Source: Podarcis pityusensis
Taxonomy: Eukaryota
Strand: one strand, 5' to 3'
NCBI GenBank assembly: GCA_964106645.2
Contig: OZ067041.1
DNA: 64,000 nt
The notes under the pieces were generated by a model. It had not been told where the DNA came from and did not search any database. It saw nothing but the letters and a program-made list of their open reading frames with translations. Positions 27,182 to 64,000 of this stretch are shown piece after piece. The first letter of the stretch is position 1, and each line of letters starts with the position of its first letter. The position numbers and the translations under genes were made by a program.

Positions 27182-27625
27182 ATACAGAGATTTGGTAACC
27201 TCTAGGCTAGATTACTACAGTCCATTATGCATAGGGCTGTTTCTGAAGATGTTTCAGAAACTTCAGCTGGTGCAGAATTGGGCAGCTGGGCTGCTCACTG
27301 GGGCAAGACAGTTTGAGCATATTACACCGATTCTGACCTAACTGCAATGGCTGCCAATTAGTTTCTGGGCCCAATTAAAAGTGTGGGTGTTGGCTTATAA
27401 CGCCTTAAACAGCTCAGGACTGCAATACCTCAAGGAACGCCACTCCCCATCATCATCATCATCTGAGCCCCTTATTTGTGTTCCTCATCCATGAGAATGG
27501 GCCTTTTCTGCTGTGACTCAGCATTTGTGGAATGAGCTCAGAGAAGCTCGCCTGGCGCCTTTATTACATATCCTTAGGCACCAGGTGAAAACGTTTCTCT
27601 ATAACCAGGCCTTTGGCTGAATAAT
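27182..27625 (+). mobile_element. L2-clade LINE ORF2 fragment
   Basis: LVTSRLDY...KLQLVQNWAAGLLTGARQFEHITPIL signature followed by degraded C-terminal sequence. Confidence 0.8.
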
Positions 27626-27872
27626 GTTCTATATATAATAATTTAAGGAAAAACAAGATATAAAGCAGCCTGTTGCATTATTAAGTGATTATGTATTATT
27701 ATTTATTATTATTTATTTAATTTCTATACTGCCCTGTACCTGAAGGTTTCAGGGCGGTTTGACCTTCATTGTATGGCAGCTTCCTGAGTTCAATGTAATC
27801 ATGCTGAAGAAGAAAATGTCAGGTGACTTCTGATGAAGTGAAAGAATAATTCCATACTGAAAAATCCCTGTT

Positions 27873-27878
27873 TTTATT
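27873..27878 (-). terminator. Polyadenylation signal AATAAA of the GluK1b transcript
   Basis: TTTATT on the + strand, ~310 nt downstream of the stop codon. Confidence 0.7.
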
Positions 27879-28184
27879 CATTTAGAAAGCACATACAGCA
27901 ATGAATGGGGAAGTAGTAGAGAGAGATGCAAAATAGGTGACCGTAGAAATCATTTCAAAAGTAAAAGCGAGACGTTTCCTGGGTGATTTGTAGTACATCA
28001 GTCTTATGTGAGTTCTGATACTGCTGTACCGCCTCGAGATTAAAAAAGGGGAAATCACACTGAATTTCTGAGATGTAAGCTGTCTCTTTTTAAAAATCCC
28101 TCTGTACAATTGTCTGGTAGGCATAAAAAGTTTTTTGCTTTGCCTTTTACTCAAGATCTCTTCCATGGGGAAAGTTGAACTCAT

Positions 28185-28340
28185 TCAAGCCATGGTTTCT
28201 TTTCTCAGTGTCCGCCTCTGATGACAAGTAAGGATACTTGTGAATGACGACCGCCCTTTAGTTCTTGTCCTTTTCTTTAATTTCTTCTGGTGTTTGAGTG
28301 AAATTCCAAGTTCCTCCATTATGGCATTGAAAGAAAGACA
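28185..28340 (-). CDS. GRIK1: GRIK1 terminal exon, GluK1b type: CLSFNAIMEELGISLKHQKKLKKRTRTKGRSSFTSILTCHQRRTLRKETMA*
   Basis: ctcctaccttctactag|TGT; 51 codons plus TGA; not in the ORF track. Confidence 0.96.
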   Translation of the reverse strand, partial: CLSFNAIMEELGISLKHQKKLKKRTRTKGRSSFTSILTCHQRRTLRKETMA

Positions 28341-31300
28341 CTAGTAGAAGGTAGGAGATGAAAAAATAATTAAGAATTACGTTTAGTACAGATTGTCACC
28401 CTATTTTGCACAATTGATTTTCAACTAGATTCTGAACATACTAACTGGGAAGTTTGAATATCTCAGTTCATTGAGTTAGATTTCTTCCACTATTACTGTG
28501 AATTTGCAGAATTGAATTAGGGGTGCGATGTGTAAAGGATTCTTTATGACCCCAGAAATTGTAAATATTGGTTGCTTCTTTATTGAAATGTGTATGTCCC
28601 AATGGCAGGAATCTGGCTAATTGGCATTACACAGAAATAAGGGTTGCAAAAGAGCAGAATCACATATTTAATAATATCCAACCTCAGATGGAATTCATGT
28701 TGCCCCTTAAAAATCTAAATGAGGATAACCAAGATTTGTTGATTTAGCAGACTTCTAACTTGCATCCAACTGCAAAGCCTTACCAGTTGAAAAAAATAAA
28801 CTATTAATCAGCATACATTTTTATCTAAATAGCATTGAGCCAAAATATTACAAAATCAATACTTTGGAGCAAAATGGTGCTTGTGCTGTGGTGGGTTTCT
28901 GAAAACCCTGAACCATGCGTTTAATTTGTTATTCTGCAGCTGTTTGCAAACTTTGACCCCACAAGAGAAGTGAGCCCCATCAAAGGACTGGAAGAAAGGG
29001 AAGCATCCCCACATTGACTAGGCAACCAGATGAATTTTGCTATTTTCCTTTGCTGTGCTGCAGTGACTCACCAGGTTCAGTTGAGTGCAAGAAAAGAGGG
29101 AAGCAACACAACATTGCCTAGGCAATGCAAGGAAATACCCCTCTCACTCTTGCCACCAGCACAATGAGTGAACTCTCCCACCCTTGAAGTCTCCTCTGAA
29201 TAACTGACAAAGGGAGGCAGCAGTGAAGCTAGGATTGGTACCTCAGCTAAGTACAAATTTTGGGGCTAAACTCATCAAAATCCAAGTTTTGGGATTTTAG
29301 CTAGTTCATTACCATGGACTTCAACAGAACAAAATCAGCTTACACCCAAGTACTTAGTCTTATTTTGGTTGCTCATTAGACTGCCCACCACCTGCTCTAC
29401 CTCATTGTCATTTTGCCCCTTACTGATTTTGTACCAGAAAATGTAGCCAAAATTCTGTCTTTTGTGTTGAACTTTTTTCATGCTTTATTCAGCATGATCA
29501 AAATGCAATAGCAAAAGGCTTTTCCAAAGCTTTATTTTCCTGTTTAAGTTTGTGTCATAAACTGTAGGGAGCAAGTAGGGAGCAAGACCAATGCTTGTTT
29601 TCTTTCTTTCAAAGAGTGACTAGAACTTCTTAGATAAGTTTCATGCTTGAACAGTTTAAACAGGAACGTTTTAAGCAGCAACATATCACTGTAGTGGTGA
29701 GAAGTAACAAAGAAATAGGTTAACAGTAATAAACATTTGTGAGCACCCAGATTATATAGCTAAGTGCCAATACCAGAAGTTGAGTTCTCAAACCCTTGTA
29801 CAATTTTTTTGTTTTTCGTCTCAAGAATTGCAATCAATTGTTCTTTTGTAACAAAGAGACTAAATTGCAAGAAAGAAACTGGAAAGGACTCGAGCTATAA
29901 TTTTCTGAGCCTGTTGAGGTATGTAGGAAGACTTGTAGGCAGCCAACAGGGATTTCATTCTTTCCTTTCCCATATACTACACTGAAATGGGAGTTTGTAG
30001 TTCCTTTGTTTAAAAACAAAGAAGATGATTGTGAAGATTACTATGGTGGAAGTGGTGTTTTTCTTTTAATTCTAGTCTATGTCATGCATGGACAGATGGA
30101 CAACAGAAATTATTGCTTATGGTGAAAAACCACAGCTCATTGAAACGTATCTGAAATCCTCAGAAGCTGCTGCTAGCCAGTGTAAGATATTTCAAAATGT
30201 TTAATTAGCGTTTGCTATTCAGGAAAGGAAGAATTTAAAAATAAATCCAAAAGCTTAGAGCAGGAGTGGCCACTTTTAGGGCCTGCTGATGTTGCTAGAC
30301 TACAACTCCCATAATCTCTGACACTTGGACATGCTGACTGGGCCAACTGAAGGGCCACAAGATATCCATTGTAGAAATTATTCTGGTCATGAGGGAATGG
30401 GGAAAAAATGGAGTACATCTGAAATGCTCTATGCCAGAATTGTAAGGAAAATGGAGATGGAAACGTAGCAAGAGTTTCAGTAATATGCTCAAATAATTTA
30501 AAATTTATCTTAATTGGATAAGTGAGAGTTTCTGTTTTGTTTTAAAAGCAGCCAATGAGCAGTGTCCGTGTCTATAAATAGTCAAAAAGACACATCTGCT
30601 ATAATCTAGGGATCATGAGTTGTATGTGGGAAAAGGCTGTTGTGCATGTGTCAGCAAATGGCTGTGTGGCTCTGGTACCATTTATATTGAAAATCCATGT
30701 AGTATATAGAAATGTGCAAGGGCAAAGTCAGGCTAATGGGCTGCCTGGTCTGGTGCCAGATTGATTACACGGGAGCTGAATGCAAACCCCATGTGCAAGT
30801 TGCATGCCTGTCAGAAATGCATCCAACGTGTCCATTGACTTGTTTTCTTTCCTTTGCCAAGATTCCTTTTTATAACATGGAATTTATAAACAAGATACAA
30901 AGGTAAAGTGAATGCAAGAGAAAACAGTGAGTCATTGATACGCAGCTTGTAGCCATGGTTTAGTTAGCTTACAGAACATGGAAGTCAAGGGGAGTATAGA
31001 AATATAGAAATGTTGATCAATTGGCGATGGCATAAATTGGAAGTAGAATTCATAAAAGTATTGCATTAAATTAAATATTACTCTGCTGCCTTGGAACAAA
31101 CTGAAGGTTACATAAGAGGAGAATAGTGCAATGTTGTGTAAATAAAGGGGGTGAGCATTTAGGACCATAATTTGAAGTAGAAACTGATGACACTGTGTTG
31201 TTCCTAGAATCTTATTTTAAACTAAAAGTTTTATTGATGTCTAAGGTTACAATTCTGATCACAATAACTTTCCACTCAAATCAGTTTAGCTCTGAAGTAG

Positions 31301-32541
31301 AAGCAATGATAACTGGGGTGTAAGTGTGTGAGTGGTTTTGAAGTTGAACAAGTTGCCTTTAGTGGGTTGTGAAATCTTTGTCCTTAGTGGGTTCCCAATA
31401 AGTCCTGGACCTACTGCAAACATTGTCAACTGTGAAAAGTGAAGAATTTTAAGGAGGTGGAGAGAGACAAAATATGAGTGATATTTACTCAAGCAGATGC
31501 ATTGAAAGGAGTGGCTCAAACACAATCATGTCCATTCATTTCAGTGGGTCTACTCTGAGTAAAACTTTGTTGACTACAACTCTACAATATTTACACTGGC
31601 CATAGTACAGATGATAGATGAGATTTCAGTTTTAAAGAATGGGCTCTGTAAACACAGTTCCAGATGCTGGATCAGGGAAGGGAAACAGCTGGTGCAAGCA
31701 GTTTCCCATTCTGAATGCATGGAAGCATGTTTTCACACATGTAATGGCCCCAACTGGATTGAGTTTATTTATTAGTTTGAAAGATAGCATTGCATTTTGA
31801 CCAAAACATTCTCATAATTCTGTTTGGAAAATACAACACACTGAAGCACAAGTAAGGCTAACTAATTGAAGTGATATGAAAATGGACAGTGTTATCAGAT
31901 TATGATGCTATACTAGAGTAATTTGGAAATCGGATTCATTACTGGCTTGTGAAGTCTAGCTATTTTATGACATATAAATACTGCAATTTATTTGGTAAGT
32001 TCTATCAATTGGATTTTAGTTAGAAATATATGCTTTTTTCAAAATTTTGACTTCACAAACACAAAGCTGTCAGCAAAGAATGGAACTGTCTGTATCTGTG
32101 CGGTAGTTCTCAGAAGTCAACAGGCACCTGAAAGCTTATGATTGGATAAGAAAGAACAGCATTGGCTTTTAGTGCAGGTAAAACTTATTATCTAAAATCC
32201 TTGGTTTCAGGTGCTCTAATTAGTTCTGCCAGGATAGAATGCAAACAAATTTATCTTACCTGAAAATGCTGAATCATGCAAAAAGAATGGTAAAAATTTA
32301 TTGACCCCAATCCAAAAACAGATGTAAGCAGCAAGGCACATACTGGTGGAGTGATCCAAGACAACAGACCTTGCAATGTAGATAGGAATTACTGGTAACA
32401 TCCTCATAAAAGAGAATGGATAGGGATGTATGTTTCATTCCACATGGTTAGACAAATGAAAACGTGGGCCTGCTGCAAACCAATGCATTGTGGATAGGGA
32501 TTACATCTGATGTGTAGGAGCCCTTTCCAATGTATCTTGTA

Positions 32542-32750
32542 CAGTGGTACCTTGGGTTACAAACACCTCAGGTTACAAACACTTCGGGAAACAGACTCCA
32601 CTAACCCGGGTTAAGAATTTTACCTCAGGATGAGAACAGAAATTGTGCGGTGTGGCGGCAGCGGGAGGCCCCATTAGATAAAGTGGTACGTCAGGTTAAG
32701 AACGGTTTCGGGCTAAGAACGAATTAAGTTTGTAACCAGAGGTACCACTG
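32542..32750. mobile_element. MITE family A (GRIK1 intron between the d and b exons)
   Basis: Same TIRs and TA flanks. Confidence 0.85.
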
Positions 32751-33405
32751 TATTTTACCAAACAACAGTTATTAATTATAACATTCTGTTACATTGTGAT
32801 GTGGCATTTAGAATGCATTTTTAACTATACCAATCTTCAGGATGACTGGAGAATCATCCAACAGTTTGAACATAAAGCCTTGGTAGAAAAAGCTTAGAAG
32901 TATTTTAGACACTCAAGTGGTAGGTATGCCTAGTAGGATTTTTTTTTAATCTTTGAAAAGCAGCTCCTGATAACATACCACAACCTGCTTTTGAAAGTCC
33001 TCTCACTTTCAAAAGCCATTTGCTATTTGACACGTGGGGCTACTATAAGAAACTCTAGCCCAGAACTGACTTTAACACAGTGAGTAGTATTCAACTGAAT
33101 AGTTGTGCTGGCAGAAGGATTAGCAAGAATAAAGGGGGTTCCCCCCCTTCACTACATTCTACCCTCAAATCTGCTTCAGAGGGTTTTTGGGGAAACCCAG
33201 AAGAGATTTAGAGAGAGGCTGTGGGGAGGAGAGGAAGAGAAAGTTCTATTGCGGAAGAATAAATCCTTGTGCTGACTTAGATTAGTGCTGTGTTGAATAC
33301 AACCCACCACGTTTTTCTTTGGATTCCAGCCAAAATATGGTTTCCTGCTAATGTACATTGTTGAAGAGGTATGCCTTAGGTGCACACACCTTTGCTTTAC
33401 TGTAA

Positions 33406-33555
33406 CTATACAGTATGGATTGAGGGTTGTGTTCGAATCCCTCGTTCCTCCCGAATTAATTTGCCACAGTCTAACTCCGTAGATAAGGTAGTCCCAGAAG
33501 TGGAGTTGGATGGATGCGTTTGCTTGCACTGCAGTCCATAAAAGAAACAAAAGGC
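33406..33555 (-). CDS. GRIK1: GRIK1 alternative terminal exon, GluK1d type: AFCFFYGLQCKQTHPSNSTSGTTLSTELDCGKLIREERGIRTQPSIHTV*
   Basis: Long polypyrimidine tract, then gcgaaaag|GCC; phase 0; 49 codons plus TAG; near-identical to the recalled human GluK1d tail. Confidence 0.92.
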   Translation of the reverse strand, partial: AFCFFYGLQCKQTHPSNSTSGTTLSTELDCGKLIREERGIRTQPSIHTV

Positions 33556-34720
33556 CTTTTCGCATGCAGAAAGGAAAATATGGAAAAAAGAAAAATAAAG
33601 ATAATAATGGTTAAGCAAACCAACAAGAAAGTTTAAAATAAGAATGATACCAAAACTATAGGAAATGGGAAATGAAAACTGTCAAAAATACGAAAAATTA
33701 ATGGCCCCTCCAGACAACCTGTTTATTGAGCATTCATCAATATTTTCTTGCACAAAGCTTATGTGGAGGATTGATTATATATTGTCTTTACTGAGCATTT
33801 ATCCTGATTTGCTTGTAGGGTGTTTGTATGTCTTCCTGTATGTTCATTCCATACTTTTCACTGTATTTCCCTATCTCTTTCCAAACAACAAAAAGTCATT
33901 TAAAAATGGATTTGTTGTGTTAGGGTGAAAGAGCCCTTTAATCCACGCTTCATTAAGCAAACCTAAACTTCCAGTGTGTGCTTGAATTCCTGCCGCAAAA
34001 TAGTGGCAGTCTGGAGGTGCCATAAGTTAACCTTTGAAGATCATGTATATTTGTACTTTAGATTATTAAATGTTCATATTTTCAAGAACCAAGCAATCTG
34101 TATGAATTCTTTACCCTTCACAGTTTTCTTAATTGTTTCACTGAATAATGATAGAAGAGCAGAATAATACCCATATTACCATTTACCAGGGATGCATATG
34201 AGATTTTCTTCTGTGATTTTGGGGTTCTGAGTTACCTGAACTTTTTAAAAGAGCGGCAGTGATGTGTTACCAATCCACCATTTTTCTGGGTTTGATTCTC
34301 TGACTTCTCAAACTTCTGCATATGCAGAGAGTTTGATGTAGTATCCAGCTTGTACTTCCACCACCCCCCAAAATTTCTGCTGACACCATGCAAAAAGGAA
34401 TCTTGATAAGATTAGCTTGTGTACATTGATTAAATCAGGGCACAAAAAAGAATCCTGATGACCATTAACATTTGCACATAATCTTATAATGAAAACAAAG
34501 AAGAAAGTTATGCCAACCTGCATAATGATAATGATAAACAAAATAGGGGCAACTGCTCATCCACCCCTGCTCTTTACAAGTTTCTGCCATACAGTGAGAT
34601 GATTTTACATAAATGATATGTATTATGTCAGAATTCTCTTGTGATGCACAGAATGCTGATCTGTACATAGGAGGAATTTATCAGTTTCACTGAAATGAAT
34701 GCGTTGTTTCTTACTGGCTT

Positions 34721-35081
34721 TAAAGGTAAAGGTAAAGGTACCCCTGCCCATACGGGCCAGTCTTGACAGACTCTAGGGTTGTGCGCCCATCTCACTCAAG
34801 AGGCCGGGGGCCAGCGCTGTCCGGAGACACTTCCGGGTCACGTGGCCAGCGTGACAAAGCCGCATCTGGCGAGCCAGCGCAGCACACGGAAACGCCGTTT
34901 ACCTTCCCGCCAGTAAGCGGTCCCTATTTATCTACTTGCACCCGGGGGTGCTTTTGAACTGCTAGGTTGGCAGGCGCTGGGACCGAGCAATGGGAGCGCA
35001 GCCCGCCGCGGGGATTCGAACCGCCGACCTTTTGATCGGCAAGCCCTAGGCGCTGAGGCTTTTACCCACAGCGCCACCCGC
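34721..35081 (-). mobile_element. Sauria SINE, near full length
   Basis: tRNA-like head (GGGTGGCGCTGTGGGTAAAA...GGTTCGAATCCC) and (ACCTTT)n tail on the minus strand; CpGs retained, so probably young. Confidence 0.9.
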
Positions 35082-36288
35082 TGTAGAAAACAGATGTAAG
35101 ACTGTAGAAAACAGATGCCACCCAGCAAACACTGTTCTTGTGCAGTCCCCAGTCATTTTAACAGGATTTGCATAGAAGCAACTGACCTTTACTGTATTAT
35201 ATAGTTGCTCTAATAACAAAGCAACCATCTATCAGGCAACTTGCCATGCATTATTTGCTAATTTTAAGGTAAAAATGTTCCAAAGGTAGGATTATAAATA
35301 CAGATTTCAAAATAGCAGGCTGATCCTATCCTTAGTGGTTCAGACATGCGGAGCCTCAAGCCACGGTGGCTGCAGCAGCCTCCTGCATTATTCGAGCAGA
35401 GCTGGAAAGCTCTCTGTTGCTGCATAGCAAAGGAAACACCCATGCTATAATCTCAGGATCGGCCACGGCTTTTCCAGAAGTAATGAATTGAAGCCACTCT
35501 GGCAGCTTTTATGATGGGCATGTCAGCAACACCTCTGAACCTCATAGAGACGTTGTAACCTCTCTGTTTGAGGAGCAGGTGCCAAGGCACTGTTCTCTTG
35601 TACTAGTGTTGGGAATTTAGCTCTCGATCATCTGCTTTGGTTTCATTATAGGATTTCCCAAATCAACTGGTACATACATTTCCAGCTGGAAATACAGCAA
35701 GGCTACATCCAGAGCTAGATATTTCTGCCTTATTTCTTTCCAAGCCAGCCTATGCTTGATTTCCGACAATAAAACAACAACTGTGTGCAATATTAACTGT
35801 GCCAAAAAGTTCTGCACAGTTTTGCCAAGTATCAAAAATTGGATGGAGCCCTTGGTACTTCCCTCTCCTCATTAACAAATGTACACAAGGCAGTGCCAGA
35901 AAGTCTGGCAGACTGTTAGTGGAGGAGTCTGACTCATAGAGCCTATTCTAAAGCTGAGATTCTCATGGGAGCTCTTGCACTGAAATGCCAAAGCCTGCAA
36001 AAACCTAACCTGGGTCTTGACCTGCTTCTTAGGTAGGTAGCTTAAGCGCTGCATTCTGCCTTGCAATGAAGCAGTTATGCAGAAAGAGGCCGAGATAGAC
36101 TCTCGGCAAGTACTGTATTGCCAGGTCACAACATAACCTTGACAGCTGCTGCTGGCAAATGACCCTGTATACAAAGATAGTCCTTTGGAATCTCTGGAGA
36201 GGGAGCAGTTTTGGGGTTCAGTCTCCCAATCTCAAACCACACGCAAACACATTTTTGTACCACACAGACTCACTCAAACTCTACCTAC

Positions 36289-36539
36289 CTGTTCGATGTC
36301 ACTGTTTTTCCTCGATTTGTAAATAAATTCTCCAATAGCTACAAACACAGAAAGAACAAGTCCTGCTGCAAGCACTATGAAGATGCCCCCAATGTTCTCC
36401 ACACCAAGGGCACTGGCTTCTTTGCTGTCCTCCTCAGGGCAACCATTGCCTCGCCACCACTTCTCCTTCATCATGTGCAGCTTTCCTTCCTCCTGTAGCT
36501 GGAGAATGGCAATAGTGATTTTGTCTCTGTAAGGAGAGC
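36289..36539 (-). CDS. GRIK1: GRIK1 exon: S2 end and M4, (G)[28 protein letters not shown]...[15 protein letters not shown]
   Basis: ccag|GC TCT ... CAG|gtaggt; 251 nt, phase 1-0. Confidence 0.98.
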
Positions 36540-36643
36540 CTGGGCAGGGTGGGAGGGAAGCAAAACAAGAAGGATTGAATATGACATTCAGGCAAGAGCA
36601 CAGGCAAAAGTAGAGTTATCAGTCTGATCCAGCTCTTTGTATA

Positions 36644-36656
36644 GCAGTAGCAGTAA

Positions 36657-36688
<32 letters not shown>
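36644..36688. repeat. (TAG)n microsatellite
   Basis: Trinucleotide run ~105-150 nt upstream of the M4 exon acceptor. Confidence 0.95.
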
Positions 36689-38681
36689 AGTTGACATTAT
36701 CAAGAGCACTAAAATATACAATGTGCATTCAAGGCATCCAGAACTGGACTTTTTAACAATGTTACTTATGCTGGTTATTCATATTGCTTGTTATACCACA
36801 CAGAATGGGCAATAGTTCTTTTTAATATTTTTGAATCTTGGTGATTTGATCCCATGGCTTAGTAGGACTTTGACCTGAGATCCAATTTTCTGTTCGTTGG
36901 ATAACACTGCTCTTTATCCAAACTGAAAGTAATATTACAGCCAGACACCTGAACCTTTAATTTATCCAGCACTGACCATGCCTCAATCACAGATAAAGTT
37001 CTCAGTGTTAAGAGTTCAATCCTGAAACATGTATATTATTAATGTAGGAAGTACCTTGGAGTTTTGGTTTTCTAACCGTTCCATCTATGTAGAAGAATAT
37101 TTTCCTAATATTTGGACAAAACAAACTTTTCTATCCCTTCCTATAACCAACACCACCTGTTAGTGGCAAGGCTGACAAAGTTGTCAGATGTCTGTAAATC
37201 CTGGAGAAACCTGACTTTCCCATCAGTCATCTTGTGCATTTGTTTTTTGTTGTTGGCAACACTGCAGAGCAACACTGCAGAGCAATAATGCAAGAAAACA
37301 TTTGAGTTTGTTGACTTTGCGAGCATTGTAGCTTATGAAATATTTTAACTTTTTTGTTTGTTTCAATTGTGTGGATGACATTGAAATTATTGATTTCACC
37401 ATAAACACATACATATCTTCCCAAATCTTTCTTCCCAAATCTAAGAAACCTCTTATAACTGCATCCCCCAGCTGTATTTCTGATGCATACGTTCTCCCTA
37501 AGGAGCTACCATCTGTTCTAATTTATTCCTTCATTGTTTTGGGCTTGAAGCATAGAATCTTTATCACTGCCCTGAAATCTTTACAGTGCATCAATCATTA
37601 TCTTGGAACCTTTGCATTTTCTCCTGGGGGCAGTGGTTGACGACTGCTGTCATCAAAGAAATTCAAATACAGTCTGAAACATTAGTCAAAATGCAACAAT
37701 ACTTTACAAATTAAGAGAACTTGGATAAACCTAGTCCTAAAAGCTAATATAGAATCCTAATATTAAAAATCAGCAGCATTAAACTGGAATGATGAACTGA
37801 CACAATTGTTCAAATTTACTGAAATTATTGAAAGTATTTATTAGTCATATTAAGGTTGTAGCTCTACATGCGTGGAGAACATGGCCCAGGGGGCTCCCCT
37901 AGACTTCCAGTATAATTACTCCCTTTCATGCCAAACATGCCATTGTTGTGCTAGGTGTGGTCCAATGTACCCAGATGACTGGGGCCTTGCTGGGCTTTCC
38001 CCAAGAGGCCTTGTGCCTGGCTTTACTCTTGCTTTTTCTGAGAGCAGCCTGCATATTATGAATCTGGAGAAGAATAAGCTGCTAGATGTTACAAGGAGAG
38101 GCCTGCACTTGACATGAAATCTACTCTTTCCTCTACAGGACCAAGGAAACTGAGGAACAATTATCTGGTGAGTGCCAGGCATGTTTTCAAAGTACAGAAG
38201 GGGAAAGGAAAGGGCAACTGTCCCCCTCAAAGTACCCATCTCCATCTATAACTTCTTCTGATGAAAAAGGCCCCAGCCTGGCTGCCCTAGTAGCCCACCT
38301 TGGTGCCTTAAAGAAGGCAAGCACAACCGAGGAAGCAAAAATAGCTGGTAGGGAAATAGGGCAGGAAATGCTAGAAACTACCAGGTCAATGCAATTGATC
38401 TTGCTGCTGTTGAGGCCTGGGTTTTAGTTGAAGCTCTATGGGAGGAAAGTTCCATCAATTTCGAACGCCTCTTTGTTTTTTCTCGTTATTAAATTGAGAA
38501 GAGGATATAAAAGAATATAAAGTAATAGCTTGTGGGGCTTATTTGGATATATTTGTGAAAAACATTGGAACTCTTTCGACCTACCAGAGCTCTTGCAAAG
38601 CAGTGAATGTGTCAGATAAAAAGGATTTTAATTTACCTATCACAGTCTAGCAATCACCACTGATATTCATACACTTCTTAC

Positions 38682-38907
38682 CAATGGGAGTTCCTACGCC
38701 GTAACCTTTGGAATCAATGAGCCCTCCAATCTGGGTGAGATTACAGTTCCTCTGAGTGACGTATTCTATGCTAGTTGATTCCATCAGCAGAGCATAGTCA
38801 GTGGTGAGCACACGCTGGATTCCCTCGTCATTGTTCTTCACCAGCGCTGTCTGCTGCCTGCTGCTCATGAATGCCCACATTTTCTCATAAGTTGATATTT
38901 TGGATTT
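38682..38907 (-). CDS. GRIK1: GRIK1 exon: S2, [33 protein letters not shown]...GYGVGTPI(G)
   Basis: tag|AAA ... ATT G|gtaaga; 226 nt, phase 0-1. Confidence 0.98.
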
Positions 38908-39631
38908 CTAAGAATAGAAGTCACAAGCGTCAGAAATAGGTCCTATTCACACGCTATATATATATTTTTAAACCCTCACATTGCTAGTTGGCATCAGCTC
39001 TAGTTGTTGAGTGTAGGAGAATCTTTTGAGAATTGGGAATCTTTTCCATTCAGATATATTCTGCTGAATGTAGCCTTATGGGTCAGCACTTTTACAAATT
39101 TCCAACAGCTAATATAATGAGCACATGGCTGCTTTTAACACCATTTGTCACAAAATACCATAGAGGCCTGTGGTCTGTTTGTGACCCAGTGAGACCTACA
39201 ATGGAAAACCAATGGACAGTACAGAACAATTACTGCCAGGTGTTCTATAGGAAAAGAGCTGTGCTATTGCTCAGCTGTGATAGAATGTACTGTGTTGTTA
39301 AAAATAGTCCAGTCTGATAAAGACAGTTTGTCAGCTTCAAACAAAAATATAAAGGCAAACTAATAAAAAAGAATTCAGGAACTTAAAAGAGTGCTCAGGA
39401 TAACCAAGGCCCCTGGTCTCCATGATAAAATTGCAGGTGAACGGTTTAATTACTGAATATTCAAAATACAGGTTCAGTTTTTAAATTTATAGAGCCCAAA
39501 ACACAACTGTGTTTTCTTTTATCCATAAAGAACATTATAGTCCCAGCTTTGTTCTTCCATCACTGACTGGGATATGATCTTTTGCTAGTGATATCTGCTA
39601 TTCAAATCAATTATACATCTCTATTTGCCGG

Positions 39632-63089: not shown

Positions 63090-63896
63090 TAAATTATTGT
63101 TGCAAGATATATAACCAATATCCTAGGTTTAAACAAGTGGGCTGCAATGAGAGCTTCCTGCTTTGTGATAGGAAAATACTTATGTTGTTCTCATGCATAC
63201 ACTATTTCTCTTTTAAATGGAGAAGCTCCTTAATGGGCAAGGCTAAGTGCATGCAAACAGTGTCGCTTAATTGTGGCATTTACATGGAAGTAAGCTTTCT
63301 CAAAATAAATGGAAAGTACTTCTATATCATATGTTTTGGATTAGGGTGTAACATCTAGATAGTGTTTAAAACTTGGTCCTAGTTTTGTACACTTCGCCAT
63401 CAGATACAATGGAAAGGTAATCAGCATTTCAGACTCCCATAATCTGATCTCACTATTCAGTAGAAAAAGACTGTATTATTGTAAAGGAATTCTTAAAACA
63501 GGCTACCTCAGCCTCGGCCCTCCAGATGTTTTATTTTTCCAGTATCATTGCAAAATATTAAGGCTGCAATCCAGCTGCCTTATTACTCGTGTATAAATCC
63601 CACAGGGTCTTAAAATGAGCATTGCTAATAGCAGGATTGCACCCTAAAGTGAAAGCTGTTACATATAATACTGACTCCTCAGCGGATTGTGGCCAAAACT
63701 CACTGTGACTTCAGCACTCTACAACTGGATAGATAAAATGGTTAATCAAAAGTCTATACTACATAGCATAGTTTATTCTAAGACCGACTTTTATTGTCTC
63801 TAAACTGCAATTGGAGACCATTTGTCAAAACCCTAAGGAAGAGTTTTTTTCAGACTCAACCTGTAGGTTTCTTACATCATCTGTCTATATACAAAC

Positions 63897-63941
63897 CTTC
63901 TTCCATACTTTATATAAATTATTAGTAGCTTCACCAGCAGC
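63897..63941 (-). CDS. GRIK1: GRIK1 alternative 45-nt ATD insert exon (GluK1-1 'exon 9'), AAGEATNNLYKVWKK
   Basis: ttcttttctaaattaag|GCT...AAG|gtttgt; 15 codons, phase 0-0; matches recalled mammalian insert A(A/S)GEVSKHLYKVWKK; not in the ORF track. Confidence 0.93.
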
Positions 63942-64000
63942 CTTAATTTAGAAAAGAACAGAAAGGGACACAAAACAGTTCTTCAGTCAAAATATAAAGC

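Follow-up and report, generated by a model that had tools for sequence, protein, structure and literature searches.

A conserved stop-containing exon in a lizard GRIK1 gene, probably spliced as a cassette, encodes the GluK1d C-terminal tail

The d isoform of GluK1 (GluK1d or GluR5-1d; GRIK1 isoform 1, NP_000821.1) is stated to be found only in human in the accessible portions of PMC4194049, PMC10706347 and PMC13221535. The first of these, a trafficking review, sets it aside as human-only, and the label was repeated in papers of 2023 and 2026 (PMC10706347, PMC13221535), the latter of which misprints the isoform as GluK2d. The original prediction that GluK1d is usually described in this way holds for these three papers, but four others (PMC6420428, PMC11540303, PMC7883153, PMC9916396) merely list the isoform in their available text, and data in PMC8257547 contradict the label. 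PMC3763755, considered as a further paper on the d isoform, was a false match. The accessible text of PMC8257547, published in 2021, reports enrichment of d in the subiculum. The available supplement gives d-junction versus canonical reads of 54/1610 in human, 3/75 in chimpanzee, 5/331 in macaque, 7/136 in rat and 8/230 in mouse, the rodent queries covering the first 20 nt of the d exon only. The junction thus amounts to 3.4% of the canonical count in human and to 1.5-5% across the five mammals, with a Fisher p of 0.53 for the rodent versus the human share. By these counts rat and mouse splice the d junction at a share like that of human, so that the suggestion that rodents may have lost or under-express the exon is not supported for the junction.

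The tail replaced by d is that of GluK1b, which according to the accessible text of PMC4194049 contains an ER-retention segment, PKC sites and a PDZ ligand for PSD-95, GRIP, PICK1 and syntenin. In GRIK2, the GluK2b and GluK2c C-tails are altered by a cassette located before the last canonical exon (PMC8257547, available part), as is the case for d; the working layout of a stop-bearing cassette is the same but no sequence homology was found in the parts of GRIK2 and GRIK3 searched. Poison exons, which act through nonsense-mediated decay, are likewise conserved cassettes that combine an in-frame stop with the motif of a splicing factor.

The minus strand of the window, a stretch of 64,000 nt, encodes the 3' half of GRIK1, to which all of the following gene features belong. 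An upstream constitutive exon (36289-36539) encodes the end of S2, M4 and the start of the C-tail and terminates in the donor CAG/GTAGGT. It is followed by the d exon, which in its spliced form comprises 166 nt (33390-33555), and by the last exon (27870-28340, where contigs end), which consists of the b tail (28340-28188), a TGA (28187-28185) and a shared 3' UTR. The order M4 exon, d and b (36289 > 33555 > 28340) matches the human coordinates. As had been predicted, an acceptor AG at 33557-33556 opens a frame that continues in phase 0 from the donor at 36289; the coding part (33406-33555) comprises 49 open codons (33555-33409) and a TAG (33408-33406). The predicted six differences at equal length from the human tail were confirmed against NP_000821.1 (GRIK1_HUMAN), to which 43 of 49 residues are identical. 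With the same donor exon, the same place before the b exon, an in-frame splice from the M4 exon in all four sequencing runs described below and a homologous tail of 49 residues, the exon is a true ortholog of human GluK1d. The peptide is encoded by a single copy in the genome.

The d tail is rich in Ser and Thr and contains three cysteines, of which Cys30 is invariant and Cys3 and Cys10 are less so; also invariant are SGTTLST, Gly31 following Cys30, and the His-Thr at the end. A class I PDZ ligand has Ser or Thr at position -2. The d tail ends in I-H-T-V, with His at this position, and so does not qualify. The b tail ends in ETMA, a PDZ-type end, and in the window both this end and the retention segment are recognizable, whereas d lacks both. 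Searches of Pfam and PDB yielded no match to the d tail, which is absent from solved structures. Three database models use an acceptor inside the exon, 27 nt from its start, but this site was not supported: it occurs neither among the 15 joints listed nor in the human rows examined.

The long pyrimidine tract predicted for the acceptor is real (29 of 32 nt, 33569-33600) but set back from the junction. With TGCATGCGAAAAG between the end of the tract at 33569 and the junction, an A at -3 and no adjoining pyrimidines, the acceptor (33556-33557) is of a weak type; it is used in all four runs. A TGCATG, an RBFOX-type motif, lies between tract and acceptor (33563-33568) and is kept in L009, a locus of host DNA from a metagenome that carries the M4 exon and the d exon. 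Relative to L009 and to read-through ORFs, the window carries three extra letters (33560-33558) between TGCATGC and the acceptor, which affect neither the d frame nor acceptor use. The donor AAAG/GTGTGT (33384-33393) is located 16 nt past the TAG.

Transcript contigs from four runs (four studies, two related organisms) were aligned to positions 27500-39200. The runs, none of which is recorded as RNA, are presumed to be RNA, and their GT..AG joints show splicing; they represent 4 of 18 presumed-RNA runs, the other 14 and six likely DNA runs having been left out, and uncovered parts do not count as evidence. The proposed check for a 36289 to 33555 junction was positive, in that all four runs contain this joint of M4 to d. 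The joint 33390>28340, from d to b, was found in two of the four (X1 and X5, which thus use the d donor) and the direct skip 36289>28340, from M4 to b, also in two (X1 and X6); all three joints have GT..AG ends. One X5 contig of 991 nt consists of the M4 exon, positions 33554-33390 and the b exon down to 27870. Based on these joints and the three-exon contig, the d exon is a stop-containing 166-nt cassette that shares the poly(A) site of the b exon, as one form among others. The last exon, which encodes the b tail when d is skipped, is wholly 3' UTR in spliced d transcripts. The AATAAA at 27873-27878, near which contigs of three runs end (27858-27873), is the likely poly(A) signal for both. 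Joint depths were 26.8 for d versus 9.6 for b in X1 and 6.7 versus 82 in X6, and offer only a hint that inclusion is regulated and at times high, contig depth being a poor measure that gives no inclusion levels. According to the available part of PMC8257547, decay requires a stop more than 50 bp before a downstream junction; with a stop 16 nt before the last junction, d transcripts are predicted to escape it.

The exon had been predicted to be terminal, but the donor used between 33390 and 33389, and its splicing to the b exon, show that this is not its sole form. It could nevertheless serve chiefly as an alternative last exon that uses a separate poly(A) site further downstream, as in human, the splice from d to b being a side product. 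Contigs of X6 and X10 continue unbroken past the 33390 donor (to 33195 and 33236), so that d is spliced onward in two runs and read through in the other two, and an ATTAAA lies close to the ends, at 32908 and 32939, of contigs of X1 and X5. In the human brain table, moreover, 54 reads lead into d and none out; among the 30 of 66 GRIK1 places examined, counted from the last exon upward, three rows reach the last-exon acceptor and none leaves d. Human d therefore looks like a terminal exon in this one data set, where it is rare, whereas in the relatives of the window it is also spliced to the b exon and forms the deeper joint in one run; the cassette layout is thus not universal. Opposed to a mainly terminal exon are the similar depths, in X1, of the joint that enters d and the joint that leaves it (26.8 and 25.6), the X5 contig across all three exons and the retention of the 33390 donor in L009, where the identical ten letters AAAG/GTGTGT follow exactly 16 nt after the stop although the preceding 12 letters agree at only 4 of 12 positions. 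The ATTAAA, a predicted poly(A) candidate, does exist at 32950-32945 but opens an A-run, and an X6 contig passes it to 32805; X1 and X6 thinly cover most of the last intron, as unspliced RNA would. A second candidate, AGTAAA, lies one base off its predicted position at 33401-33396, inside the spliced exon, and was rejected since it is not conserved, being absent from L009; no conserved signal is located by the stop. A mainly terminal d exon is therefore improbable for the relatives of the window. The transcripts that run past the 33390 donor reflect either retention of the intron or a terminal form like that of human, and encode the identical protein.

Other elements were noted in the window. 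A candidate 9-nt microexon in the last intron (32268-32260, minus strand) is marked by a series of pyrimidines, a TGCATG (32280-32275), an AG, CATTTTCAG and the strong donor CAG/GTAAGA, with an AATAAA (32302-32297) just upstream; it does not appear among the joints listed. A 213-nt element (32540-32752), which is bounded by 25-nt terminal inverted repeats (92%) and covered to great depth in each of the four runs, is likely a non-autonomous DNA transposon, and a second high-copy repeat lies near 34720-35080. At the edge of the window (about 63888-63944, minus strand) is the exon of the 15-residue GluK1-1 amino-terminal cassette.

The exon had been predicted to predate the mammal-reptile split, and matches in sharks and rays extend its age to the jawed vertebrates, a date supported by the distribution of the tail. 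A peptide search yielded 32 matches among 39 candidates and a profile search 36 among 1366; two database sequences that matched (P0074, P0075) were dropped as repeats. The named entries, most of which outside human are predicted 'isoform X' models, comprise sharks, rays, sturgeon, lungfish, axolotl, frogs, tortoises, lizards, birds, platypus, marsupials and placentals, the latter including pika, camel, whales and apes. Database tails from shark to human, together with the contigs from relatives and the rodent junctions, are incompatible with an isoform restricted to human. Several birds and tortoises match the window at 49/49 residues, amphibians and lungfish at 43-47 of 49 and sharks and rays at 38-42, and neither length nor stop position changes from sharks to human. 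No rat or mouse protein is among the named matches listed, pika being nearest. Nor are teleosts or jawless fish, a weak negative, cluster representatives and 15 of 568 main-cluster members being listed; sturgeon is the sole ray-finned fish, a weak hint that the exon may be missing or altered in teleosts. In some mammals the tail drifts (platypus 32/49, Dromiciops about 38/49, one mammal-type ORF 67%) and marsupial tails lack Cys3, while those of reptiles and birds are almost unchanged; the mammalian drift possibly reflects relaxation.

The b tail shares gene and mRNA end with d but is far less conserved to sharks. In the three species in which both tails were compared with the window, identities of d and b were 48/49 and 48/51 in pigeon, 49/49 and 49/51 in tortoise, and 42/49 and 25/51 in the zebra shark Stegostoma. 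The nearest named b tail, that of Phrynosoma, is 50/51 identical to the window, which fits a lizard, and the amino-terminal domains of goose and Stegostoma agree at 282 of 344 residues. The b tail is related to the last exon of GRIK2, which it matched as a control (E 0.0065) in a search of this genome that revealed no d-like exon in the 40 kb that follow the M4 exon of GRIK2 or the 30 kb that follow that of GRIK3 (best E 2.8). Based on this difference, d was likely gained by GRIK1 specifically, early in jawed vertebrate history. Three short probes for the mammalian GluK1c and GluK1a exons, allowing up to three mismatches, found none in 28341-36288, a weak negative, and no c-type insert was seen in the non-mammalian proteins examined; c and a may be mammalian additions and b and d the old pair.

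The selection on the exon was estimated by comparison with L009, one of two loci obtained from 99 pattern matches in a metagenome scan. L009 is likely of bird origin, as its intron reads through to a peptide found in a stork entry; the second locus (L010, 62% over 21 residues) is likely a chance match. In this one pair, the d exon displays 15 synonymous changes (35.7 sites) and no non-synonymous change (111.3 sites), where about 47 non-synonymous changes would be expected under neutrality (P about 6e-10), in agreement with the predicted purifying selection. The proportion of changed synonymous sites in the d exon (0.42) is near that in the M4 exon (0.51), which together with the unchanged residues indicates a constraint that acts on the protein. 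Since 86% of the tail is kept between shark and lizard, and no residue changed over a dS of about 0.6, the d tail very likely has a function.

These data bear on the possibility that d is a poison exon with a regulatory role, conserved for its effect on the RNA, that lowers GluK1b through decay and encodes an incidental peptide. A cassette with a stop, conserved letters in the flanking intron, an RBFOX-type motif and the low junction share in the mammalian brain data available would fit such a role. It is very unlikely, however, in view of a stop merely 16 nt from the last junction, synonymous sites that vary freely although all 49 residues stay the same, and a length and stop position that are constant from sharks to human. 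That d is a relic, or an echo of annotation in which models of other species were copied from the human protein and the splicing is noise, might be argued from the mostly predicted non-human entries, the junction share of 1.5-5% in the five mammals of the available supplement and the drift in some mammals, but is largely refuted and hardly credible given the joint into d in all four runs and a constraint in genomic DNA that is independent of annotation.

A cassette form that includes d thus remains the preferred reading, and its inclusion may be controlled from the acceptor. RBFOX bound upstream of an exon usually represses it, although such repression is not always observed (PMC11874969, accessible part). 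A conserved UGCAUG just upstream of d is present in the window and in L009, and all 11 bird- and mammal-type ORFs that read through the intron end in Ala-Cys-Lys before the d exon, which is compatible with TGCATG. The 64 kb contain 25 copies of the hexamer on this strand, which corresponds to a chance of about 0.6% in an interval of this kind, chosen post hoc. From the motif and the position rule, repression of d inclusion by RBFOX has a roughly even chance of being correct.

Depending on whether d is included or skipped, the last 51 encoded residues are replaced by a different set of 49 or kept, with no change of the mRNA end. Inclusion would remove the b tail with its ETMA ligand and basic ER-retention segment and supply the Ser/Thr-rich tail with three cysteines and a terminal HTV, so that a GluK1d subunit would be uncoupled from PSD-95, GRIP, PICK1 and syntenin. 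GluK2 is palmitoylated at C858 and C871. By analogy, the d-tail cysteines could be palmitoylated, and this modification might take the place of PDZ anchoring. A change in trafficking and anchoring is probably the likeliest role of the d tail, as it lacks the retention segment and PDZ ligand but contains candidate palmitoylation cysteines. On the whole we consider it probable that the GRIK1 d exon, as old as the jawed vertebrates, is a decay-safe 166-nt cassette whose inclusion is likely repressed by RBFOX and whose use in place of b likely alters trafficking and anchoring. A bolder and more doubtful proposal is that GluK1d, rather than GluK1b, is the most constrained GluK1 C-tail of jawed vertebrates: an RBFOX-gated cassette that would count among the main isoforms of certain non-mammalian tissues and of RBFOX-poor cells, with an unrecognized binding or lipidation motif (SGTTLST-x3-CG, HTV), and that the mammalian lineage converted into a rarely used last exon.

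The d isoform itself is already known, and database models place the exon outside human. What appears to be undescribed in the searchable literature is how deeply the exon is conserved compared with the canonical tail, its conserved layout as a decay-safe cassette and its RBFOX-type motif; a search in which subscription journals are largely missing found no paper on vertebrate-wide conservation, the cassette form or RBFOX control of the exon. Because the cassette shares its last exon with b, 3'-end and probe assays directed at the last exon would score d transcripts as b. The splicing of the d junction in rat and mouse, documented in the available supplement, makes a neglected isoform testable in standard models. 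If d is indeed the most constrained of the GluK1 tails, the field would have overlooked a core trafficking variant that is still spliced in mice.
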